From Escherichia coli (GTDB lineage: Bacteria; Pseudomonadota; Gammaproteobacteria; Enterobacterales; Enterobacteriaceae), in NCBI RefSeq assembly GCF_013315695.1, contig NZ_CP054353.1: a DNA stretch of 64,000 bases, one strand, 5' to 3'. Position numbers and translations under genes: made by a program. This document shows, one piece after another, positions 7,985-27,126 of the stretch. Every line of letters starts with the position of its first letter. Position 1 is the first letter of the stretch. The notes below the pieces were generated by a model that did no database searches, was not told where the DNA came from, and was given only the letters and a program-made list of their open reading frames with translations.

Positions 7985-8300
<316 letters not shown>

Positions 8301-8303
8301 CAA

Positions 8304-9818
<1,515 letters not shown>

Positions 9819-15270: not shown

Positions 15271-15355
15271 GCCGAAGTGGCGAAATCGGTAGACGCAGTT
15301 GATTCAAAATCAACCGTAGAAATACGTGCCGGTTCGAGTCCGGCCTTCGGCACCA
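15271..15355 (+). tRNA. leuX: tRNA-Leu (anticodon CAA)
   Basis: 85-nt sequence gccgaagtggcgaaatcggtagacgc...ggcacca with long variable arm and CAA anticodon loop, ending in CCA. Confidence 0.92.
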
Positions 15356-15357
15356 TC
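15313..15357 (+). repeat. Direct repeat copy 1 (leuX 3-prime end, attachment-site core)
   Basis: 45 bp identical except one mismatch to 25708-25752. Confidence 0.8.
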
Positions 15358-15889
15358 TACATTTTCCTCTTGAAAAACAAGCGATTAAGTAAATTATTTT
15401 ACCTTTTTTGCCTATCTAATCTTCACTGATTCTTTCCCGTATAAAAGCCACTGTGATTGTTAATGGCTTTGGTATGTTAGCACGCAGTGGCAAGTAGTTA
15501 CCAGGCTCAACCTTGTACTGCATACGCCAGTATGCCCCCCTTTGAAGCAGGAAGACGCGCCGCCGTCTCTAAACCTATGCCAAGCACTTTTAACCGTTCC
15601 ACACTTAGTTCGGCGTTCCGTTCAAGCCTGTCGTGGTGACTTACCACGAATAAACAAGCAAATTCGCGGTATGGTATTCGTTACGAGAGCGGTTAACTGA
15701 CAAGACTCCTGTGATACGCCTAAGGTGCTTAAATTGATGCGTCCAACATGGCACAAAAGGCGGTCTATCGTTTAATTTTGCTCCATACATCAACTGGCAT
15801 TGCCAGCTGTATGGGGCTTGGTCTGCTGGTTCCGATGAACGGATTAAATTGCTAAGATGCAGACCATAAGCCATAAGGCGGAGATAAGT

Positions 15890-17098
15890 ATGAAATCTGT
15901 AGAACTATTTGCCGGTGCTGGTGGCTTGGCTATGGGTTGCGAAATTGCTGGTTTTGAGCATCTTGCAGTCGTTGAATGGGATAAATGGGCCTGTGATACC
16001 GTTAGAGAGAACAAAAAGAATGGCTTTCCGCTGTTGTCTGATTGGGATCTTTTTGAGGGTGATGTAAGAGAATTTGATTGGTCGAAAATCCCTAAAGGGA
16101 TTGACCTTCTTGCGGGAGGGCCACCTTGCCAGCCATTTTCAATCGGTGGTAAGCACAAGGCTAATTCTGATTCGCGGGACATGTTTCCAGCGACAGCAGA
16201 AGCGATCAGGCAAATTCGCCCTAAGGCTTTCATCGTCGAGAATGTGAAAGGCTTAACACGGGCAACCTTTGCGAGCTATTTCCAGTACATCCAGTTACAG
16301 CTTGAGTTTCCAGAAGTAGCCCCGCGAAATGGCGAAGACTGGAGCGAGCATTTAAAACGCTTGCAGGAAGAAAAAACCAGTGGAAAGAACAAAGGGAGAG
16401 GGCTGACGTATAACGTTCTGGCTACGTTAGTCAATGCAGCAGACTACGGCATCCCACAAAAACGTGAGCGTGTCTTCATTGTTGGCTTCCGCGATGATCT
16501 TGAAATTGAGTGGTCGTTCCCTAAACCGACACACAGTTATGATGCACTCGTTTATGATCAGTGGGTTACTGGTGATTACTGGAAACGACATGGTTTAGAA
16601 ATGCCAACTGTTCCAAGCCAGATGGTTAACCGTATCGCAAAATTGCGTAAAAATCCTCCCGATACACTTCCGTGGAAAACTGTTCGAGATGCAATCGCGG
16701 ATTTGCCAGATCCTGAAACAAAGGCGGCAAAGATGATCCGGAATCATGCGTTCCAGGCGGGGGCACGAACTTATCCCGGTCATACCGGAAGCCCCTTAGA
16801 TCTGCCAGCTAAAACGCTCAAAGCAGGTGCTCATGGCGTTCCTGGGGGCGAGAACATGCTTGTTCGTGATGATGGCTCAGTACGCTATTTTACTGTGCGA
16901 GAAAGTGCCAGAATTCAAACATTTCCCGATAGTTATCGTTTTCACGGGAGTTGGACTGAAACTATGAGGCAGTTAGGTAACGCTGTGCCGGTTCATTTGG
17001 CGTATTGCGTTGCCAGCAGTGTAGCGGAAAAGCTGCTGACCTCTGAAATTGGGAACATCCTTAAGCAGGGTGGCAATTATAAAAGGGCTTCTGCATGA
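15890..17098 (+). CDS. DNA (cytosine-5)-methyltransferase, Type II R-M modification subunit
   Basis: Motif I FAGAGG, motif IV GGPPCQPFS, motif VI ENVKGL; start set at MKSVELF with GGAG RBS. Confidence 0.88.
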   Translation: MKSVELFAGAGGLAMGCEIAGFEHLAVVEWDKWACDTVRENKKNGFPLLSDWDLFEGDVREFDWSKIPKGIDLLAGGPPCQPFSIGGKHKANSDSRDMFPATAEAIRQIRPKAFIVENVKGLTRATFASYFQYIQLQLEFPEVAPRNGEDWSEHLKRLQEEKTSGKNKGRGLTYNVLATLVNAADYGIPQKRERVFIVGFRDDLEIEWSFPKPTHSYDALVYDQWVTGDYWKRHGLEMPTVPSQMVNRIAKLRKNPPDTLPWKTVRDAIADLPDPETKAAKMIRNHAFQAGARTYPGHTGSPLDLPAKTLKAGAHGVPGGENMLVRDDGSVRYFTVRESARIQTFPDSYRFHGSWTETMRQLGNAVPVHLAYCVASSVAEKLLTSEIGNILKQGGNYKRASA

Positions 17099-17745
17099 CA
17101 GGAAAGGTCATACCATTTAATCCACTTGATAAACAAAATTTAGGTGCCAGCGTTGCGGAAGCCTTATTGAGCAAAGATGCTCATCCTCTGGAGGAGTTAA
17201 CCTCATTTCAAGGAGCAGGGATTTACGCAATTTATTACACTGGCGATCATCCTGCTTATAGGCAACTGGCAGAACTGAATCGTGACGGGCAATTTCGATT
17301 GCCTATCTACGTGGGTAAGGCCGTCCCAGCAGGGGCGAGAATGGGGCTTACCAACCCTGATAAGGTTGGTAACGTTCTGTTTAGGCGCTTGAAAGAACAT
17401 GCAGAAAGTATTCGCGCAGCGGAAAATCTTTCGATTGAAGATTTTTATTGTCGATTTTTGGTTGTTGATGACATCTGGATCCCATTGGGAGAATCGCTGG
17501 TTATCTCTCGCTTTAAACCGATTTGGAATTCGTCTATTGATGGTTTCGGTAATCATGACCCAGGTAAGCATCGCTACACTGGTTTACGTCCTCGCTGGGA
17601 CTTTATGCACCCGGGGAGAGGATGGGCTCAAAATTTACGTGAGCGTGATGAAACTGTGGATGAACTCATTCGTGATTCTATACAGTATCTTCAGAATTTA
17701 CCGCCTTGCTTGGCTCAGAAATTTATCGAAGCTGAAGGCGATTAA
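17095..17745 (+). CDS. GIY-YIG family restriction endonuclease (Eco29kI-like)
   Basis: GIYAIYY ... YVGKA motifs; 216 aa; start overlaps the methyltransferase stop (ATGA). Confidence 0.6.
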   Translation: MTGKVIPFNPLDKQNLGASVAEALLSKDAHPLEELTSFQGAGIYAIYYTGDHPAYRQLAELNRDGQFRLPIYVGKAVPAGARMGLTNPDKVGNVLFRRLKEHAESIRAAENLSIEDFYCRFLVVDDIWIPLGESLVISRFKPIWNSSIDGFGNHDPGKHRYTGLRPRWDFMHPGRGWAQNLRERDETVDELIRDSIQYLQNLPPCLAQKFIEAEGD

Positions 17746-17866
17746 TCAGCAAATGATCATCGGAGGCATCTGCCTCCGAATGTGATTAAGCCTTGGTTGA
17801 CAAAGTGGTTGCTTAAAACATTAAGCGTTAATTTTCTGGCCCTCTACCTTCTGACGTGCATAATTC

Positions 17867-18442
17867 TCAAATATCAGGGAGTTGCAAGAACGACTTAAGT
17901 CGGTAGAAGGTTGCTTTGCTGATCTCTAACCTATCCTGGACCGCTGCTGGTGGTAATCCTCGTGCTAATAACTCACGTACTTGTTCAACGGTTGCTTTGA
18001 TCGGTCTGCCGCAATGCTTACCTTCCGACTGAGCTCGTTTGATTCCTGCGGCTCTACGCTCTGCGATTAGGTCTTTTTCCAGGCTGGCAAGTCCTGCCAT
18101 CATAGTGAGCATGGCTTTACCCACTGGTGTTGAAAGATCAAACCCCTCTCGCAAGCTGACAACCTTCACACCCTTCATTTGCAACATTTCAACAGTAGAT
18201 AGTACATCGATAGTGTTACGTCCCAAGCGGTTTATAGCAATCACGATCAGCGTATCGCCTTCTCGCACATAATTGAGTAGTTCAGCAAACCCTGGACGCT
18301 CTCCTGCCTTGATTGCACCACTCACCGCTTCATCACTAAACCAGCGAGTTACGCTATAACCAGCATCGGCTATCTGCTTCTTCTGGTTTTCAACGTTTTG
18401 ATCGCTGGTGGAAACTCGCACATATCCGATCACAGTTGTCAT
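17867..18442 (-). CDS. serine recombinase (resolvase/invertase family)
   Basis: N-terminal GYVRVSTSDQ catalytic serine motif and C-terminal HTH; 191 aa. Confidence 0.88.
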   Translation of the reverse strand: MTTVIGYVRVSTSDQNVENQKKQIADAGYSVTRWFSDEAVSGAIKAGERPGFAELLNYVREGDTLIVIAINRLGRNTIDVLSTVEMLQMKGVKVVSLREGFDLSTPVGKAMLTMMAGLASLEKDLIAERRAAGIKRAQSEGKHCGRPIKATVEQVRELLARGLPPAAVQDRLEISKATFYRLKSFLQLPDI

Positions 18443-18449
18443 GATGTTC

Positions 18450-18580
18450 TCTAAGTCTCAAAAGGTAGTGTCAAAATAATAGCTGTCTCAAAATTAAAGA
18501 TCAACCTTTTGAGACAAGGCGAAGCCGCATTCTGTCGTTGCGTCGGTGTGGTCTTATAAGGAGATGGTTTTGAGACTGGA
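18450..18580. promoter_or_regulatory. Candidate recombination (res-like) site upstream of the serine recombinase
   Basis: Four copies of GTCTCAAAA: two direct (18456, 18485) and two inverted (18507, 18568). Confidence 0.35.
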
Positions 18581-18681
18581 TAGCAGCGGTTTAGGAATAG
18601 AGGCTTGGAACGAGAGTATGGGGAGAATGGAAATTCGGAATGGGCGGTCAACTTATTGGGCGTGATTGCTCACGCCTTTGT

Positions 18682-19033
18682 TTAGATCTCAGAACACAGG
18701 CTCAGCGTGTAGAGTGCCGTTTCACCATCGTTGTTAGTTGGGCGCATAACGAAAACTGGATCACTGCCGTTGTCGATGTAAGTAACCGCTATTCCACCGT
18801 CTGGGGTGGCGTACATCTTCGCAATACTTTTCTCTCCAATGAAACCCAGCCGCCAGGTTTTACCACCCATGCTCACTTTCATGATTTTGTCCCGCACATC
18901 GAGGCGAGTTTCGACAGACGATTTTTGGCTACCAGAATCTATCTGCCCTTCCTGAATGGCCTTACAGGTGAATGTGGTTGCACTTGAGGCGAAGGGGGGG
19001 GACGAGCAGCGCCGCGAGAATCAATTTTTTCAT
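18682..19033 (-). pseudogene. Small secreted protein gene disrupted by a frameshift in a G8/C8 homopolymer
   Basis: ATG at 19033 encodes signal-peptide-like MKKLILAALLVPP, then the frame breaks at the C8 run (18994-19001); removing one C fuses it to ORF 18682..18897. Confidence 0.5.
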
Positions 19034-19213
19034 GGTCTTCCTTTTGGATACGAGTTAAGAGTTCGTCGGGAGACATTATAAAATCTTTAATTGATAAAAA
19101 CGATCAATTTCTATCGTATTGATCGATAAAATTGATCATAATTGAAACTATAAATCCTACGCTCAGTCGTTATGGATGAGGTTTTTTATAAGAGAACTCA
19201 ACGGGATGATGTT

Positions 19214-19420
19214 ATGAAAAGAGCAATGATGGTGATGTGTGGGCTACTGTTTTCACAGTTGGTAGCAGCAGGGCAGATCACAATGATCGATCCCCAGCAG
19301 GATACGACGGAGAATGGCAAGACGCTTTGCACCTACGAGAACAGCCAGTATGTTTTTACCTACGTCACTAAAGGGCAGTGCCCCTATGCAAAGACTTTCG
19401 ATACTCAGGATTCAGAGTAG
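19214..19420 (+). CDS. small putative secreted protein (about 68 aa, two Cys)
   Basis: Internal start MKRAMMVMCGLLFSQLVAAG gives a signal-peptide-like N-terminus. Confidence 0.4.
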   Translation: MKRAMMVMCGLLFSQLVAAGQITMIDPQQDTTENGKTLCTYENSQYVFTYVTKGQCPYAKTFDTQDSE

Positions 19421-20490
19421 AGGCTGCATAAAATAGGAAGTGTTGTTTAACTTCATGAAAAGACAGGTGTGCTTAGCACAAGCCTCCAACGGATTGATTG
19501 TTAATTCTTCTGATAACGGCACAGCGCAAGGCTTTACGCAAAGAGAGTGATAGTTACTATCTTGATGACTATGGCAATTTTCCCCCTGTAACAACGGCAT
19601 TCATTACCTGCTAATTACCAGCGGATTACGCGCCAGTTTGATGGGAATTAACTCAGGGTTATTGCATGGGGTAGTGTGGAGTGAGCAGGGTGACAGTCTA
19701 CCGTTGGGTGAAGGGCTGATAGGTAATCGACGCGAAGCGCCGGAACCATACTGTTATGCGCTGGCCTTGGTGCCAGGCTCACGCCGCGCATGAAAGATAG
19801 CCATTACAGGAGAGATAATTTTTGACAAGTTACCTTCATCAAAGGTGCTTCTCCTGTATAAATGCTTGTTATGCTCGCTATGCTCCCAAACACAAACCCA
19901 TTAAACCCAACTAACTTAAGGTTAGTTAATTGGTTTTCTCTCTCTCTTGGGCTACTACCGCCCAAACTTTGCTTAATGCCATACAGCGACTACGCCGCCA
20001 TTAACAACACTCCACAATGATCCAATGGCATTCCTGCTTAATGTCATCCACCGATCTTGATTAGCCACCAACCAAACAACCACCCTAAATCTTTTAGGCT
20101 GTCTGTTTATCTGGTGCAAGGTAGCTATGACATTACCATACGTGCAAACATCCCAAGCCAATCATCACTGATTGGCTCGTGCTGATGCACTTCAGTGCAG
20201 AGAGAGAATCTCTCTACTATTATAGCGTATTTAGTAGGTCCCTGTATTTAAAGGAAAAATTAGGGTGAAAATCGCCATTGTTCACTTTTTTTCTCAAGAA
20301 ATGGCGAGATGCTGTTCGTAAATGGGAGGCATGGCTGTCTTCTCTGGTGGCAAGTTCTACCACAAATTTTGATTGACAGCAACCATCTATTTCTGGTATA
20401 AGAAGCACTAATTGCAAAGCAAAAATGCAACTAATTGAAAATGACCAAAAATATTTCATGAGATCACCGTTTGGGTATTGACAAACGTTA

Positions 20491-20781
20491 GTGGTCTATG
20501 GTATTCTTAATACTAAGAAGGGGAGAAAACCTTCTGAACTTTTCAGCCCTGGGCAGGGTAACTGCCTGGGGCTTTTTGCATCCAAAATCCGAAGGAGGCC
20601 ATTATTGAAGTATTACAGCAGTGACCAGATTTTTAATGACCTGGTGAGCGGCGAAGTGAAACGCCACGTTATTTACGCATCTATGCAAGCAGCAAAATCG
20701 AGAGGGTATACAGACCGAATGGAAATGTTTCAATCTGCAATTATCCGTTATGACCAACACCGAAGGGAGAACACCAACTAA
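20491..20781 (+). CDS. small hypothetical protein; true start may be the TTG at about 20608 after the AAGGAGG RBS
   Basis: ORF 10 nt upstream of the 306-aa ORF; strong RBS aaggagg at about 20593. Confidence 0.4.
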   Translation: MVYGILNTKKGRKPSELFSPGQGNCLGLFASKIRRRPLLKYYSSDQIFNDLVSGEVKRHVIYASMQAAKSRGYTDRMEMFQSAIIRYDQHRRENTN

Positions 20782-20790
20782 GGAGGAACA

Positions 20791-21711
20791 TTGATTCAAG
20801 CATACGAAGACGGCTATTTTTACAGAGATACCCCGCACCACGATCACTGCCCGCTTTCAGCATTTTCCAGACCATCCCAGCAATTCATCGTTATTGATAA
20901 TGTTCTGTACGTTGTCGAAGTGGAAAGTGGTGAAATTCTTCACTACGACTCGACAGAGTATTTGCTTGATGGTGGCATTGTTCAGGATCTGCATTTGAGT
21001 TACTCGACAGCAGACACCGCCAAATCAAAACAGGCTCACCGTGAATACGCTAATAAGCTGGGCGACCTTCCAGGGAATGCAGCCTATAACGGGATCAAGG
21101 AATACGCAGACGTATTAAGCAAGCCAGATTTCAAGAAAGTATTTGCATTGTGTCAGGAAGTAGATAGACGCAATGTAGTGTTTATAAAACGTGCGGATTT
21201 GAGCATAATACTGAACACCACGCCGGATCATCTCAATCGTGTATTATCTGCTCTTGAACGTAAGCACTACATCAAAGTTGATAAAGCTGAACACCAGAAA
21301 GGAGTATTAAAACTGTGGGTTAATCCTTCGTTTGTCTGGAAGGGTGATTCAGCTAACCGCTACTTATCTGGATATTTGCAGGGCTTCCCAATCTTGGAAC
21401 GTAAACGCTCCACAAAACGTTCTGACGTGCTCGACACGCTCACGGCTGCTGCAATGGTTGCCTTTGATACCTGGCACATTGAACACGGTTATAAGGCCAA
21501 TCAGCCTCATTCTAATGAATGGTATGCAGAGATCACGATGTACGAAAACGCCTACGGCGAAGGGGTGAGGCTTGCAGCAGAAAATAAGACATTGAACAAG
21601 TTATTGAACCCGGCAACATCTGAGGGGGATTTCGTTTATGAGCTATTCACTACGGCACAATACAGGGAATACCTGCAAACATTGGCAAAACAAGTAAGGA
21701 GATTACACTGA
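20791..21711 (+). CDS. hypothetical 306-aa protein with possible winged-helix segment
   Basis: Long ORF with GGAGG RBS; no recognisable catalytic motif. Confidence 0.6.
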   Translation: MIQAYEDGYFYRDTPHHDHCPLSAFSRPSQQFIVIDNVLYVVEVESGEILHYDSTEYLLDGGIVQDLHLSYSTADTAKSKQAHREYANKLGDLPGNAAYNGIKEYADVLSKPDFKKVFALCQEVDRRNVVFIKRADLSIILNTTPDHLNRVLSALERKHYIKVDKAEHQKGVLKLWVNPSFVWKGDSANRYLSGYLQGFPILERKRSTKRSDVLDTLTAAAMVAFDTWHIEHGYKANQPHSNEWYAEITMYENAYGEGVRLAAENKTLNKLLNPATSEGDFVYELFTTAQYREYLQTLAKQVRRLH

Positions 21712-21995
21712 ACCAATGTTTTGTAATAAAGAAGCCAGCACAATACTTATTTGAACTAAATTAAGCAACTCTCATACACACCGCTCTTTTGGTGAGTTAT
21801 TTATTACTATCTTTAAGGTGATGAGTGTTTATACTGTATTAAATTATTATAAATAAGGGGATGGTGTATGATTACAGCTCTTTATTGGTGTTTGTTCTTT
21901 CAGTTTGCGCTGTATTTTTTGTCTAAATTAAATTTAAATTGAAAATTAGCCCTGATCTTGAAATAGTTCAGGGCTGGAATTTCTAAAAAATAACA

Positions 21996-22955
21996 TCAGT
22001 GTGCTTTTAGTTCATCTTTAGCTAATGAGTCATAGAGTATTTTTGTGAGCGGAGACTCTAAATAATCATCACTAAGTAGTTTAATAAAATGCTTTTGGGA
22101 TTCTTTTGTTTTTACGAGCAATTGTGTGCCGTCTTCACTTACAATTAAAACTGTTGAAAGATAGGTATGCTTGCTTACATAATCGATAATTTCTGGCACA
22201 TCAATTTTCCCCAGTACAGGTGAGTGTTTGGCAATTTTGGCAAGCTTCCTTGAGAAAGAAATTTCTTTTGCACTCTTCTCAAGGTGAGTAAGATCTTCGA
22301 TAAGCAATGAAGCTTTCAATGCTTCCAAAGCCACCGTTGCTTGAGCTTCAATAACCTGATGGAACTGCATCGTTATTTCTAAAGTTTTTTGATTTTTTAT
22401 CAGGAATTCGTCGTCTATAAGAGCCAAGTCATAATTATAATCTAATCGGAACACTTGGGTTGGCAATTCTTTTAAATACCCGTCTGCGTCTGGTATCAAG
22501 TTAAACAATTTTCGGCTTTGCTCAAAAACCATGAGGTTTGTTTTGTTCTTATACAATGACAAACACTTATTGTTGCCTCTTAACTGAATTATTATCCCTT
22601 TCACGTCAGTAAATTTATTATTTAAATCATAATAATCCTGAGAGTTAGGCGGTATGGCTATTGCATTTTTTATAAAATCAAACTCTTTTGGATGTTCTTC
22701 ATAATCAAATGCAAACAAGGCATTTTTTCTATCATCAAAATTCGAAAGGAGAGGAATGGTTAAATCCTCATTTGTCACAATGTCGTCGTAAAGCCTAATT
22801 TTGAATCCTTCAACAATTTTTGGTAAAGCTTCAGCATCTATTTTAGATAATTTTAATTCATAATTATCTTCAGTTTTAACTATAAAGATAATTCTTATAC
22901 CTGAGAAATTATCGAAAATTTCGGTGATTTGATTTTTAAAATTCACAGGGGTCAT
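21996..22955 (-). CDS. 319-aa soluble protein, KwaB-like (candidate Kiwa component)
   Basis: Co-oriented with and overlapping the membrane protein gene; size and order match the Kiwa KwaA-KwaB arrangement. Confidence 0.55.
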   Translation of the reverse strand: MTPVNFKNQITEIFDNFSGIRIIFIVKTEDNYELKLSKIDAEALPKIVEGFKIRLYDDIVTNEDLTIPLLSNFDDRKNALFAFDYEEHPKEFDFIKNAIAIPPNSQDYYDLNNKFTDVKGIIIQLRGNNKCLSLYKNKTNLMVFEQSRKLFNLIPDADGYLKELPTQVFRLDYNYDLALIDDEFLIKNQKTLEITMQFHQVIEAQATVALEALKASLLIEDLTHLEKSAKEISFSRKLAKIAKHSPVLGKIDVPEIIDYVSKHTYLSTVLIVSEDGTQLLVKTKESQKHFIKLLSDDYLESPLTKILYDSLAKDELKAH

Positions 22956-23572
22956 TATTTTTTCCTTGCTATGAAAACGTAGTCATCAAAAAAACTATAG
23001 AATACTTGATCGTCAACAGTCAGCACATCCATCGAGATTGCAATGACGTTTTTTACTTCACCACTTCCTGCATGAGAAATGTTAACTCTATACAACTTAT
23101 AACCGAAAAGCGCCAAAGTAGGATTCGCATAATACTTATCCGTTTTAATGAAAATTAAACCAATAACTACTATTAAGAGAAAGTACGCAATGTTTTTCTG
23201 AGGGTCATCAAAACTGAATCCCATAAAAGGTACTATGTAAGTTGCTAAGAAAGTCAAACTTTCATAGCTCTCACTTTGGCAAGCAGTGATTGTTACACAG
23301 TCAGCATTGTTGACCTTCGTCAATCCTTTAAACCTTCTATAGAAATAAAATGCTATTCCTATAAAAATTAAACAAATTATTGAGATTATGTTGCTGGAAG
23401 CTAATTGATAAAAACCTATAAAATGGCAGGAAGAGCCATAACAAAATGGGATTTTTGCGCTCAAAATGATAATAAAAACAAACAGCAACATTAAAGACAG
23501 TATGTATAGTCCCATCTTGTTGAATGTGCTTTTTCGTTTCATGTTATCCCCCAGTGATGAAATCATAATCAA
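22955..23572 (-). CDS. four-TM membrane protein, KwaA-like (candidate Kiwa component)
   Basis: 205 aa with four hydrophobic helices; AT-rich; stop overlaps start of downstream gene. Confidence 0.6.
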   Translation of the reverse strand: MIMISSLGDNMKRKSTFNKMGLYILSLMLLFVFIIILSAKIPFCYGSSCHFIGFYQLASSNIISIICLIFIGIAFYFYRRFKGLTKVNNADCVTITACQSESYESLTFLATYIVPFMGFSFDDPQKNIAYFLLIVVIGLIFIKTDKYYANPTLALFGYKLYRVNISHAGSGEVKNVIAISMDVLTVDDQVFYSFFDDYVFIARKK

Positions 23573-23826
23573 AACTTGATCATGTGAACATCAAAAGCAT
23601 ACCTTAAAGCACTGGTTTTTTGTACAGCAATCGGCAAATTCATGCGTACTATCGAACTTACAAGAGGACGCATAGTAGATTTTCTGATCCAAATTGCCAT
23701 CATGTACTTTTAATTCATGTAGAGTAGCCAATGAAGTATCAGCAATTACATGATTTTATTGTCTATTTTTTATGTTTTTTTGTAAAACACCAGAAGATTG
23801 AAAAGGGCCAATGAGGCCCCTTGGCG

Positions 23827-24078
23827 TTATTTACGGTTTTTGTTGGATTGAGCCAGCACGGAAGCAGCAAGCTGCTTGGTTAAAGTACTGGAACGTGGAT
23901 TATCCAGCGCCGCAGATGCTTTATGTTCCATTGCACCACTTGTCTGATTTGAGGAACCTTTTTGAGAGAGAGCTGAACCAGCAAGGCTCTTCTGAATTGC
24001 AGATGCGTTGGGGTTGTTTAGGGTTTGTGCTGCGACTGATGCGACTTTACTTGATGTTTGCTTTGAATTGTTAGCCAT
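23827..24078 (-). CDS. small S/A/Q/N-rich protein with internal repeats
   Basis: ORF with repeated KxxASxxAQ-like segments; start set at MANNSK. Confidence 0.35.
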   Translation of the reverse strand: MANNSKQTSSKVASVAAQTLNNPNASAIQKSLAGSALSQKGSSNQTSGAMEHKASAALDNPRSSTLTKQLAASVLAQSNKNRK

Positions 24079-24309
24079 TCTCAACACCTATTCAAGAAGT
24101 GAATTATTGAACATCTTGTATTTAAATCAAGAATGAATACAAGATGTAGTGTTAATGATAATCCTCACCGCTTCGCTGTGCAACGATGAAAAATCTCTTT
24201 ACTGGATAAAACTACAGTTTTAAAAATGTGCGGTATTTCTGCTTTCAAATTGGCTTAATGTGCATACATTTAGATGATACCACTGCGTTTTCTGATCGTT
24301 ATTCGTTCA

Positions 24310-25593
24310 CTATTTATCAGTTTTCTCACGTTGGGGCTCCGTCTCTATCTCTGGGTAACGTAATAGCTCGATGTATGGCTGTAGTTCAATCGGAGATGCT
24401 GCATTCTTGCTGTACGTCTTGAAACTTTCTGTAGAGCCGCGCTCATGACCCAAGAGAAGTGCGATCCGGTCTTCTGTAACTGGTTTTAACTTACCTCGTC
24501 CAACCCCCCCACGATCCAGAATCTGCGCCACTGCATGGCGTAGACTGTGAAAAACTTTCAACTCTGATCCTACTTCCCCCAATGCCTTACGTTTAGCCCT
24601 CGTAAAACGCTGTGAATGCCACGTAGAGCGCTTTCCATCTGCGCGGTCAGCTATCGACGCACGATAGAATAAAAAGCCGTTATGGGGCTTCTCACGCAGC
24701 GACAAAACCAACGGAGTGATCAGGCTATGCACCGGAATAATACGGGCTGCTGATTTGGTCTTCCCCTCCGTCACTTCGAAACATAACACCCCTTCAATCT
24801 CTCGGATGTTGGCTGCACGTAATGAACAAATTTCATTCAGGCGCATACCGCTATACATCCCGATCAGCGTTACATTTTGCATCTCTTCATCATTCGCCAT
24901 CACAGCGAACACCTTCGCCAATTCTCCAGGCTCAAATACTTCATAACTCACCTTGCTACTTTTGGCCTCCAGCGCATGACCGCGCCAGATGTTTTCTTGC
25001 GGTGCATCGTGGTAGCGATTACGGGCCAGATCCCAGATTTGAGCCAGTGCGCTGACATAGTTTTGTATGGTCTGTGGTGCTTTCTCCGTCTTGAGCTGAT
25101 CAAGCCAGCCTGTAACGGTGGTTCGGTTAACGTCACGAAGCTGAACATCACGCTTTTTCAGATGTTCTAAGAGCACTTCAACAGCCTTGTTTGTCTTCGA
25201 TAGCGTAGTGAGTTTGCGCTTCTCGCTGAACTGCAATAGATAAAGATCACGCATTTTCAGGAGGGATGGCACTCCTTGGGATTGGGTATTGCTCATGACA
25301 TGCTGAACAGGTGTTTCATGAACTCGGGCGCTAACTCTGCGTAGCTCTGCAATTGCCTGCTCAATCTTACTCCCTTCTCTTGGTTTGACCTGTTCCCGTA
25401 AACGTATCCATTCAACAGCGATAGCATCTCTGAACAATCGCGCCTGACGTATGTCACTTGTGCCAGTGCTCTTGACGAAGTAGCGCTTGTTGCCAAAAAG
25501 CGAGCGCATGTAAGCTGGAACGGTAATCCTTACCAGATAGTTTCCGCATGGATCTAAAACTAAGTAACGATCTCTCTTGAAACTCATGTTCAC
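24310..25593 (-). CDS. tyrosine-type site-specific integrase
   Basis: C-terminal catalytic region with HSLRH and LLGH motifs; adjacent to the distal direct repeat. Confidence 0.88.
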   Translation of the reverse strand: MNMSFKRDRYLVLDPCGNYLVRITVPAYMRSLFGNKRYFVKSTGTSDIRQARLFRDAIAVEWIRLREQVKPREGSKIEQAIAELRRVSARVHETPVQHVMSNTQSQGVPSLLKMRDLYLLQFSEKRKLTTLSKTNKAVEVLLEHLKKRDVQLRDVNRTTVTGWLDQLKTEKAPQTIQNYVSALAQIWDLARNRYHDAPQENIWRGHALEAKSSKVSYEVFEPGELAKVFAVMANDEEMQNVTLIGMYSGMRLNEICSLRAANIREIEGVLCFEVTEGKTKSAARIIPVHSLITPLVLSLREKPHNGFLFYRASIADRADGKRSTWHSQRFTRAKRKALGEVGSELKVFHSLRHAVAQILDRGGVGRGKLKPVTEDRIALLLGHERGSTESFKTYSKNAASPIELQPYIELLRYPEIETEPQREKTDK

Positions 25594-25707
25594 CCCGGCT
25601 ATTTTGTAAGGGCTTTTACATGGGGAAGTTTCCTGTGTAGATTGTTGGAGCGGCGAATTATTAGCAGTTGATTCAATAGCTTAGATCAGCTTGCTGGACA
25701 AGCGAAC

Positions 25708-25752
25708 ACCGTAGAAATACGTGCCGGTTCGAGCCCGGCCTTCGGCACCATC
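25708..25752 (+). repeat. Direct repeat copy 2 (partial leuX 3-prime end)
   Basis: accgtagaaatacgtgccggttcgagcccggccttcggcaccatc matches tRNA 3-prime end 15313-15357 with one mismatch. Confidence 0.8.
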
Positions 25753-25948
25753 GGAACATCAATAGACGTCAACGGACGTCTTTTTTTGTGCCTAAAATCC
25801 AGTATCCGCAAGGCTTTCCTCGCTTTTTCACTCAACCTAAGTCAACCTGATTCAATCTACATCAACTTACTGATGCGGGTACAACTGCGGGTATTTCCCG
25901 GTTCGATAATGTTTGTACCCACACAGAACCCTTGAAAGGATACTCATC

Positions 25949-27126
25949 ATGGCTCTGAGTGATGTGAAGGTTCGTTCGGCTAAGCCTGAAGCAAAAGCCT
26001 ATAAGCTGACCGACGGTGAAGGCATGGTTTTGCTGGTTCACCCTAACGGCTCCAAATACTGGCGGCTACGTTATCGCTTTGGCGGTAAAGAGAAGATGCT
26101 GGCATTGGGGAAATACCCCGAAGTGTCGTTGGCGGATGCCAGGGCACGCCGGGATGAGGCTCGTAAGCTTTTAGCTAATGGTGTCGATCCCAGTGAAAAC
26201 AAGAAAGCTGTTAAGGTAGAATAGGAACAAGAGGCGATAACGTTTGAAGTAGTCGCCAGAGACTGGCACGCCAGCAATCAGAAGTGGTCGGCATCGCATA
26301 GCGCTCGTGTTTTGAAAAGTCTGGAGGATAATCTCTTTACTGCTATCGGTAAGCGGAACATTGCGGAACTGAAGACGCGGGATCTTCTTGTACCCATTAA
26401 AGCAGTCGAGTCATCCGGGCGGCTCGAAGTTGCCGCCCGTTTACAGCAGCGTACTACCGCGATTATGCGCTTTGCCGTTCAGAGCGGCTTAATCGACTAC
26501 AACCCCGCGCAAGAGATTGCAGGTGCGGTTGCTACGGCGAAAAGACAGCACCGTGCAGCTCTTGAACTGAACCGTATACCTGAATTACTTCATCGCATAG
26601 ATCACTATTCTGGCAGACCGTTAACTCGACTGGCGGTTGAACTCACTTTATTGGTTTTCATCCGTTCGAGCGAGCTGCATTTTGCCCGCTGGTCAGAAGT
26701 AGATTTTGAAACGGCTATGTGGACAATCCCAGGTGAGCGTGAGCAACTGGAAGGAGTCAAGCATTCTCAGCGTGGCTCGAAGATGCGGACACCACACCTT
26801 GTACCTTTGTCGCGGCAGGCCCTAAGTATTTTGGAAAAGATCAAAAGCATGAGCGGAAATTGAGAGCTGATTTTTGTGGGCGATCACGATCCACGTAAGC
26901 CGATGAGTGAGAATACGGTGAACAAGGCTTTGCGCGTAATGGGGTATGACACGAAGGTCGAGGTTTGTGGGCATGGCTTCAGGACGATGGCTTGTAGTTC
27001 GTTGATTGAGTCGGGATTATGGTCGAGGGATGCGGTAGAGCGGCAGATGAGTCACCAGGAGCGTAGCTCTGTGCGAGCCGCTTACATCCATAAGGCGGAA
27101 CATCTTGGGGAGCGTAGGTTGATGTT
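25949..27126 (+). pseudogene. intB: P4-type integrase, fragmented and truncated by IS911
   Basis: N-terminus MALSDVKVRSAKPEAKAYKLTDGEG; reading frame broken into three ORFs; 3-prime end replaced by IS911 left end. Confidence 0.8.

Follow-up and report, generated by a model that had tools for sequence, protein, structure and literature searches.

What does a gene-free stretch of about 1 kb do inside a small defence island of Escherichia coli? The stretch occupies positions 19421-20490 of a 64,000-nucleotide (nt) piece of contig NZ_CP054353.1 (assembly GCF_013315695.1), which we call the window; all coordinates are those of its plus strand. It belongs to a chromosomal integrative element of 10.4 kb, bounded by 45-bp attachment (att) repeats at a tRNA-Leu gene, and it is conserved across related islands. 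On its right lies an operon that begins with a small protein, Sp, and continues with a winged-helix protein of 306 amino acids (aa) in a position that we call the Rep slot; the module on its left contains a small recombinase. We give roughly even chances to the reading that this gap is a cis-acting, non-coding replication and control region that combines a probable origin with a promoter and an attenuator for the Rep-slot operon. The islands concerned are phage-derived, integrative defence islands of a so far uncharacterised family. We infer the origin function, and the roles of the 306-aa protein and the recombinase, from comparison with relatives.

The gap is non-coding and rich in palindromes

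The gap is real, non-coding and enriched in palindromes, with conservation of its position and, in part, of its sequence. Its longest open reading frames (ORFs) encode 79, 62, 62, 53 and 51 aa, and a Pfam scan gave no match for any gap ORF. In some genomes RefSeq lists a 50-aa ORF at 19641-19793; in two close relatives 1 nt of it is deleted, and it has only 13 residues in common with an EC96-type relative. ORF "families" in the gap switch reading frame between lineages, and conservation is therefore at the nucleotide level rather than the protein level. Gene callers leave about 1.37 kb uncalled in all six listed contigs that carry an identical 306-aa protein, and no known gene in frameshifted form covers the gap. 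Given the frame-hopping ORFs, the lack of Pfam matches and the indel in the 50-aa ORF, we rejected a protein-coding gene or pseudogene. The initial annotation of this DNA, which had called the stretch ORF-poor, was correct on this point.

It had also named three palindromes, all of which are present within 2 nt of where it placed them. A direct check of the sequence finds AGAGAGA-A-TCTCTCT at 20201-20215, extendable from 20199; CCAATCA-TCAC-TGATTGG at 20158-20175, with a longer form (AGCCAATCA/TGATTGGCT) spanning 20156-20177; and GTGCT-T-AGCAC within TGTGCTTAGCACA at 19468-19480. Perfect inverted repeats with a stem of at least 6 and a loop of at most 8 number 15 in the gap, nested repeats included, compared with 2.95 ± 2.1 in 500 dinucleotide-preserving shuffles of 19421-20490. 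This is an approximately five-fold enrichment, and none of the 500 shuffles reached 15 (P<0.002). For stems of at least 7, six were observed against 0.66 in shuffles. Single-strand folding of 19690-20250 is likewise better than that of shuffles on both strands (z = -3.9 on the plus strand and -5.8 on the minus strand). The reported GC-rich core is modest but real, with 53% GC in 19600-19799 against 39-45% in the flanks.

The best conserved part of a 4-kb stretch lies at 19700-20200, where 86-100% of columns per 50-nt block are invariant among six window-type elements. Here the window diverges from its relatives by 1.2-4.0%, compared with 8.5-14% at four-fold degenerate sites overall and 11.6-23% at those of the 306-aa gene, so that the centre is 3-10 times less diverged than synonymous sites of nearby genes. 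Conservation in related islands, on which the earlier reading of the region depended, is thus found.

That the gap consists of decayed gene remnants without present function, or else is an operator array serving transcriptional control only by the 306-aa protein (taken up below), appears highly unlikely. Some decay is under way close by, as the neighbouring 116-aa gene is frameshifted in the window. Decay of the gap itself is opposed by a centre more conserved than synonymous sites, by candidate ORFs that lack protein-family matches and shift frame between lineages, and by the persistence of the region in at least nine lineages and several genera.

A family of related islands shares the gap

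A sensitive DNA search with the gap gave matches in about 100 further E. coli genomes, mostly at approximately 71% identity. The two of these matches that were examined fall in a 1.3-kb stretch without annotation in another island, one adjoining thiM, which has the local gene order of the window and different cargo (AIPR, HNH). Further members were retrieved from viral contigs, species genomes and metagenomes by using two conserved sequences of the gap as search patterns: block A (GTCTACCGTTGGGTGAAGGGC, 19696-19716), the G-rich peak of the GC-rich core, and block B (TGGCTGTCTTCTCTGGTGGCAAGTTCTACCACAAA, 20332-20366). One additional member, L041, was retrieved by a search with Sp. Clustering gave at least nine sequence lineages of related enterobacterial elements. 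In all of them a homologous gap of 1.1-2.1 kb, left uncalled, lies between a small recombinase and an Sp-led operon, and this arrangement recurs in E. coli, in Enterobacter, and in metagenome and viral contigs. The recombinase slot holds a serine resolvase in three lineages and an unrelated tyrosine recombinase of 186-212 aa in the others, which suggests that the two are functionally equivalent.

Some relatives encode, after the Rep slot, a lambda-E-type capsid protein, a tape-measure protein and a Dit-like tail protein, followed by an integrase of the family found in the window; the family of islands is therefore phage-derived. Three such elements, L008 (IMG/VR contig 3300011574_000035), L022 and L041, are about 13 kb long and carry the lambda-E-type major capsid gene, a 620-aa tape-measure gene and the Dit-like tail gene. 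No terminase or portal match was found among their tested ORFs. This odd, partial set of structural genes might remodel helper-phage particles.

The conserved core of recombinase, gap and Rep-slot operon is oriented oppositely with respect to the integrase in the thiM-adjacent islands (L003, EC96) and in the leuX element of the window, and the integrases of the two kinds of island belong to different families. Inversion by the resolvase was considered and rejected, as no flanking inverted repeats were found.

Outside the family the sequences are very rare. Among 2.9 million IMG/VR contigs, exact block A and block B sequences occur in only 2-3, each from a member of the family. A 19-mer of block B, searched against 100,044 species genomes, matched one Enterobacter locus and one Tannerella metagenome-assembled genome (L010, 6240-6258); the latter is an exact chance match with no other similarity at the locus, and we rejected it as a family member.

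Repeats and initiator-like proteins in relatives suggest a replication origin

The argument for an origin comes from comparison with the relatives. Their Rep-slot proteins, encoded downstream of Sp, are 202-277 aa long, and all five that were tested match PHROG "replication initiation protein" or O-like families. In every lineage other than that of the window, short direct repeats follow block A directly and are themselves followed by an A+T-rich tract, and the type of repeat tracks the type of initiator. Lineages with the F14 initiator (L005, L011, L012, L022, L026, L027) have four copies of TATACRGGAAAAACCCGTATGT, then an A+T-rich tract that contains GATC, present three times in five of the six. 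Those with the F11 initiator (L003, L008, L021) each have their own set of 3-5 repeats, then an AT-rich tract of 60-70 bp; the F11 proteins have the C-terminal part in common and differ in their N-terminal winged helix. An iteron origin is expected to have at least three direct repeats of about 17-22 bp; such arrays were found in L003, L005, L008, L011, L021 and L022 (3-5 repeats), and a tract of at least 78% A+T lies next to the repeats in L003, L008, L011 and L021.

Repeats that co-vary with the initiator, together with an AT-rich tract, amount to the layout of an iteron origin. Such a layout has been described for phage-inducible chromosomal islands (PICIs; PMC6092414) and for the integrative island SGI1, in which a swap of initiator is reported to accompany loss of the original vegetative origin, oriV (PMC7433901). 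An origin or transfer-related site had been among the suggestions of the initial annotation. The origin is the best supported of these through the comparison with relatives, and no transfer function was seen.

If this reading holds, the left and centre of the gap (about 19518-20330) would be the probable vegetative origin, in which a conserved block adjoins a tract that melts easily or forms hairpins, as well as repeats or palindromes, specific to each lineage, to which proteins would bind. The origin would be used after excision of the element, and the neighbouring small recombinase would resolve multimers that arise from replication. The right end (20330-20600), with two promoters, operator-like repeats and a hairpin-plus-terminator leader, would hold the Sp and Rep-slot operon off until read-through is allowed.

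Several observations weigh against an origin. The window lineage has no clear iterons: there is one pair of 20-bp direct repeats, 65 bp apart, and the motif GCGCYGG occurs twice. Near block A the window has no 40-bp stretch with at least 78% A+T; the estimate for 19815-19870 is approximately 65%. Motif scans found no DnaA box or integration host factor site conserved across lineages. The 306-aa protein matches generic MarR-like winged helices and no initiator family in Pfam, PHROG and PDB sequence profiles, and its "cognate" centre is also found in L041, whose Rep slot holds a helicase-like protein. Blocks A and B are independent of initiator type, which the origin model leaves unexplained. 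BLAST of the window gap and of one relative's gap against phage and plasmid collections gave no match, and with no plasmid or phage record that contains the region, autonomous replication lacks direct support. Finally, the element is strongly mosaic, and recombination history, rather than constraint, could account in part for how little the centre has diverged.

The hairpin-rich centre of the window lineage

In the window, block A is followed in order by hairpins H0 and H1, a C-rich tract, H2, H3, the 20-bp repeat pair and four more palindromes. H0 (19756-19791) is a GC-rich palindrome, ATGCGC...GCGCAT, whose arms are identical in L041 around a different spacer. H1 (19805-19858) has a 9-bp stem, TACAGGAGA/TCTCCTGTA; its counterpart in L041, TACAGGAAA/TTTCCTGTA, shows one compensatory pair (GAG/CTC to GAA/TTC), and that in L039 has one mismatch. 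The C-rich, G-poor tract (19868-20140, plus strand) has a GC skew of -0.3 to -0.57 and is 96-100% invariant among the six window-type elements. Within it lie H2 (19909-19927), H3 (19947-19965) with a T-rich, terminator-like tail, both copies of the direct repeat TGCTTAATGYCATMCASCGA (19970-19989 and 20035-20054) and a palindrome at 20084-20098. Three adjacent palindromes, AGCCAATCA-TCAC-TGATTGGCT, TGCAC-TTCA-GTGCA and AGAGAGA-A-TCTCTCT, occupy 20156-20215. The stem of the first is 2 bp longer in the window through two substitutions unique to it.

The palindromes are unequally conserved within their own lineage. The one at 20199-20215 changes only at its centre and the one at 20158-20175 keeps a 6-bp stem; that at 19468-19480 loses a base pair in one relative. 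L041, which has a 482-aa helicase-like protein in the Rep slot, contains the same ordered series H0-H3 as the window. The positions of H2 and H3 are kept between the two and their stem sequences are unrelated. Each of H0-H3 folds better than shuffles (z -2.0 to -5.7).

These features raise the question of whether the gap encodes one or more non-coding RNAs (ncRNAs): a long structured RNA of approximately 0.5-0.9 kb over the centre, on either strand, or a small RNA of about 100 nt running from after H1 to H3, which might prime replication or regulate the element. Several properties fit such an RNA. Folding-energy excess is strong on both strands in every lineage tested (z -3.7 to -8.8), hairpin positions are kept between the window and L041 while sequence turns over, hairpin insertions vary in the 5' domain, and the C-rich asymmetry of the plus strand in this part is common to all lineages. 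In addition, near-invariance extends to every position of the centre and shows nothing like a codon pattern, a promoter-like TAGAAT box that is invariant in L005-type lineages and L041 is aimed into the region there, and H3 with its T-rich tail resembles a terminator.

Other observations count against such an RNA. A covariance scan of the gap against Rfam 15 gave no match at the gathering threshold, and even at E<=10 the best sub-threshold matches (E 0.2-8) were to unrelated eukaryotic or leader families. RNAalifold was applied to both strands of three alignments, one of which was spoiled by lineages that lack block B; across lineages, the alignable 5' domain (19408-19758) yields next to no consensus structure, at -5.5 kcal/mol for one strand and -2.1 kcal/mol for the other. 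The centre hairpins are kept between the window and L041, where only 2-3 sequences can be aligned. The palindromes are symmetric and suit DNA sites equally well, the H1 mismatch in one relative is uncompensated, and no convincing promoter lies upstream of the centre in the window lineage. The structured RNA proposed in the initial annotation is accordingly not supported in the parts open to testing, and we consider an ncRNA reading unlikely. Of the parts examined for RNA structure in this comparison, it is a short leader at 20517-20580 that shows compensatory changes. Judged from sequence, the hairpin-rich centre would fit RNA, single-stranded DNA, a cruciform or protein-binding palindromes alike.

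It is also conceivable, at rather long odds, that the centre, together with blocks A and B, is either a cis element of a new kind or a large structured RNA, found only in an undescribed family of phage-derived, satellite-like defence islands. This may take the form of a transcription- or R-loop-primed single-strand-hairpin origin, or of a helper-phage-sensing RNA that releases the terminated leader. Either form, if true, would provide a mechanism of induction and spread for "integrase-only" islands, and a large RNA would represent a new RNA class tied to mobile defence islands.

Promoters and a terminated leader at the right end

P1, a promoter-like TTGACA-18-TATAAG read from the sequence, lies after block B on the plus strand (20373-20402), and other lineages have TTGACA or TTTACA with TATAAA. 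Behind it are two operator-like direct repeats, ACTAATTGCAAA (20407-20418) and ACTAATTGAAAA (20430-20441). P2 (20478-20507, plus strand) is a promoter-like TTGACA-18-TATTCT with a TG extension, 10 of 12 matches and a conserved TTGACA.

The predicted leader RNA downstream of P2 (20517-20580, plus strand) contains a stem-loop, SL1 (20517-20534), then a 12-bp hairpin (20545-20573) and a T-run, shortly before the ribosome-binding site of Sp. At the same position, 12 sequences from all lineages examined have a terminator-like hairpin of different sequence; its U-tract is short in L022 and L026. Between the window and L039, SL1 differs at three base pairs in a row, and each change is fully compensated (GAAGG/CCTTC to GGTAG/CTACC). 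The leader, which lies mostly just outside the stretch originally singled out, is the one place where a transcribed RNA structure is well supported. With a promoter followed by a GC-rich hairpin and T-run ahead of Sp, conserved in relatives, it has the makings of an intrinsic terminator or attenuator, and we infer that it acts as an attenuator.

Sp and the protein in the Rep slot

Sp is a small protein found throughout the family; in the window it has 58 aa and a TTG start (20605-20781, plus strand). Its homologues are 58-63 aa long. A comparison of the window, L005, L022 and L003 shows start codons that vary by lineage (TTG, CTG, ATT, ATG) behind a good Shine-Dalgarno sequence. This variation suggests that translation is kept weak on purpose or is regulated, and it may be coupled to that of the gene downstream.

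That gene encodes the 306-aa winged-helix protein (20791-21711, plus strand). Relatives at 77-88% identity occur in Klebsiella, Enterobacter, Citrobacter, Cronobacter, Kosakonia and Pantoea, and a search of 1.8 billion proteins returned only 13 relatives. Alignment with the relatives' Rep proteins by hhalign gave a probability of 36%, restricted to the winged helix. An AlphaFold model (pLDDT 69) compared with the PDB by Foldseek gave MarR-like matches only, with E about 2e-3. With Pfam, PHROG, hhalign, AlphaFold/Foldseek and PDB profiles all failing to make a connection, we rejected the protein as a known initiator.

The likeness to MarR-type regulators speaks for the operator reading introduced above, as does the size of the palindromes, which is that bound by dimeric winged-helix proteins. 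On the other side, the conserved parts of the gap are found in elements without the 306-aa protein, and approximately 1 kb is far more than operators need. The initial annotation had proposed binding sites for this protein. That proposal finds no specific support, as the conserved blocks are present in elements that lack it and the window-type centre is present in an element with the 482-aa helicase-like protein instead.

Conserved blocks and a possible packaging or transfer site

The left part of the gap contains a conserved domain at 19518-19737, in which 60-95% of columns are kept across 10 lineages. It includes the boxes TTTACCTG, ATTACCAGCGG, TTTGATRGG and GTTGTTGCATG and a hairpin, GATAG-TTA-CTATC (19549-19561), and its conservation looks like that of a string of primary-sequence boxes. 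Block A is invariant in 12 of 13 aligned representatives; the Enterobacter locus L009 has a diverged copy and L041 a degenerate one. The window, EC96, Enterobacter, L005 and L008 types retain block B, L021 and L041 have a variant of it, and L011, L022 and L026 lack it. To the left of the domain, the TGTGCTTAGCACA palindrome (19468-19480) is followed on the minus strand by a T-rich run, which gives it the look of a terminator; its conservation does not extend beyond the window lineage.

Blocks A and B do not follow the type of recombinase or integrase any more than that of the initiator. This independence would suit a packaging, transfer or recombination site: a helper-phage packaging signal (pac or cos), an origin of transfer (oriT) or a resolution site of the adjacent recombinase, whose gene always adjoins the gap. 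The relatives with capsid, tape-measure and Dit-like tail genes and no terminase or portal match among tested ORFs may for that reason depend on a helper phage, and integrase-only defence islands have been suggested to be possibly uncharacterised satellites (Hochhauser et al., PMC10121019). We nevertheless think such a site distinctly improbable. A helper's own pac or cos should be common in phage genomes, and no phage record matches the blocks; a resolution site should vary with the type of recombinase, and the blocks do not; and no relaxase or other transfer gene was seen.

Comparison with known systems

Returning to the reading of the gap as a replication and control region, the closest parallels are the oriV/rep region of SGI1 (PMC7433901) and the pri-rep-ori region of PICIs (PMC6092414), where an integrative element likewise carries an initiator-slot gene beside a non-coding stretch. 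Expression is apparently off until induced here as there, and the relatives of the window (only these) have 3-4 direct repeats and an AT-rich tract, with repeats that change with the initiator type. There are also clear differences. The stretch lies upstream of the initiator operon rather than downstream and measures 1.1-2.1 kb rather than about 0.25 kb. A search for DnaA boxes found none, there are blocks A and B and a long C-rich tract full of hairpins besides, and palindromes stand in place of iterons in the window lineage. AlpA, primase and RepA_C proteins are all missing, and PICIs have two repeat sets flanking an AT-rich region, against one set in this family. We rejected identity with a PICI, given that there is no AlpA, primase or terS among the element ORFs, that the gap is 5' of the Rep slot and that there is a single repeat set. 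A ColE1-type, RNA-primed origin was also rejected, with no RNAI or related Rfam match and an initiator-slot operon present.

The basic replicon of pSC101-type plasmids consists of a par locus, the origin and repA with an autoregulated promoter. The gap resembles it in combining, over approximately 1 kb of non-coding DNA, a hairpin segment rich in inverted repeats, origin repeats and an initiator promoter and operator. It differs in that the element is integrated, the initiator family is unrelated, and there is neither sequence similarity nor any plasmid match. The right end has its own parallels. The 6S transcript of lambda PR'-tR' and the attenuators of plasmid rep genes are promoter-proximal terminated leaders, and P2, a strong promoter-like sequence, similarly has a hairpin and an intrinsic terminator within about 70 nt downstream, before the genes that it would control. 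As in such leaders, position is conserved and sequence turns over. Unlike in those systems, no antiterminator, antisense promoter or qut-like site was identified here.

In its gene content the element corresponds to the integrase-only defence islands of E. coli, many of which have no recognised way to replicate or move (Hochhauser et al. 2023, PMC10121019). It is small and tRNA-integrated, with restriction-modification and Kiwa systems, an integrase and a recombinase, and no recognised mobility genes. What goes beyond that article, as far as the searched portions extend, is the conserved backbone of recombinase, non-coding region, Sp and Rep-slot protein, together with the relatives that carry phage structural genes. 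The backbone is common to islands with differing cargo: restriction-modification and Kiwa in the element of the window, AIPR and HNH in the islands next to thiM, and genes for capsid and tail elsewhere in the family. If the gap is an origin with a switch, these islands would be inducible replicons and possibly phage satellites, and the spread of defence cargo across enterobacterial genera would be explained. The blocks, hairpins and leader would then offer a testable handle.

The host element and its neighbouring genes

The left boundary of the element is attL (15313-15357, plus strand), the 45-bp 3' end of a tRNA-Leu(CAA) gene (15271-15355). The right boundary, attR (25708-25752, plus strand), is 97.8% identical to attL and adjoins the integrase gene; this second copy of the tRNA 3' end bears out the earlier placement of the gap inside an island. 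Contigs of 10,400 and 10,465 bp were considered as excised circles and rejected, the element having been cut at the att repeats during assembly. Identity with a pipolin was also rejected, as pipolins occupy a different tRNA-Leu site and the element has no PolB.

From left to right, the element begins with an Eco29kI-type restriction-modification system (methylase and nuclease). This is followed by the serine resolvase (191 aa; 17867-18442, minus strand), which belongs to the left neighbour module of the gap, and by a 116-aa gene of unknown function (about 18682-19076, minus strand; phrog_35183). The latter is frameshifted in the window and in strain EcPF7, and intact in strain E1739 and in metagenome relatives. 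A 68-aa ORF (19214-19420, plus strand; phrog_4641) ends where the gap begins, and a hydrophobic N-terminal stretch, judged by eye, suggests that its product is putatively secreted. In the divergent promoter region that separates the 116-aa gene from the 68-aa ORF, a 20-bp motif, TTRATYGATAAAANYGATCA, occurs twice at 19087-19145, 32 bp apart. Each copy has internal dyad symmetry, and the pair could be an operator or a resolvase res site. To the right of the gap and the Rep-slot operon lie KwaB and KwaA of the Kiwa system (21996-23572), an 86-aa ORF (23827-24087) and the tyrosine integrase (24310-25593), all on the minus strand.

The element is present in 7 of 5,426 complete E. coli genomes, and whole-element relatives exist at approximately 93.5% identity. 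Mosaicism is extreme. A comparison of 15358-25752 with L038, L039 and L002 shows that, in the same pair of elements, divergence at four-fold sites ranges from 0-2% in the integrase and the 86-aa ORF to 62% in KwaB, which implies frequent cassette exchange of the Kiwa genes.

Directly past attR lies a P4-type integrase (Arm-DNA-bind_3) with an internal stop (25913-26863 and beyond), then fragments of the insertion sequences IS3 and IS66. The 10.4-kb element is therefore the tandem neighbour of a leuX island that is older and has decayed. Upstream of the element, in core chromosomal sequence, Rfam matches above the gathering threshold were obtained at 9063-9257 and 8058-8229, to Ysr276 (a Yersinia antisense small RNA model, 180 bits) and to two naRNA4/REP-type repeats.

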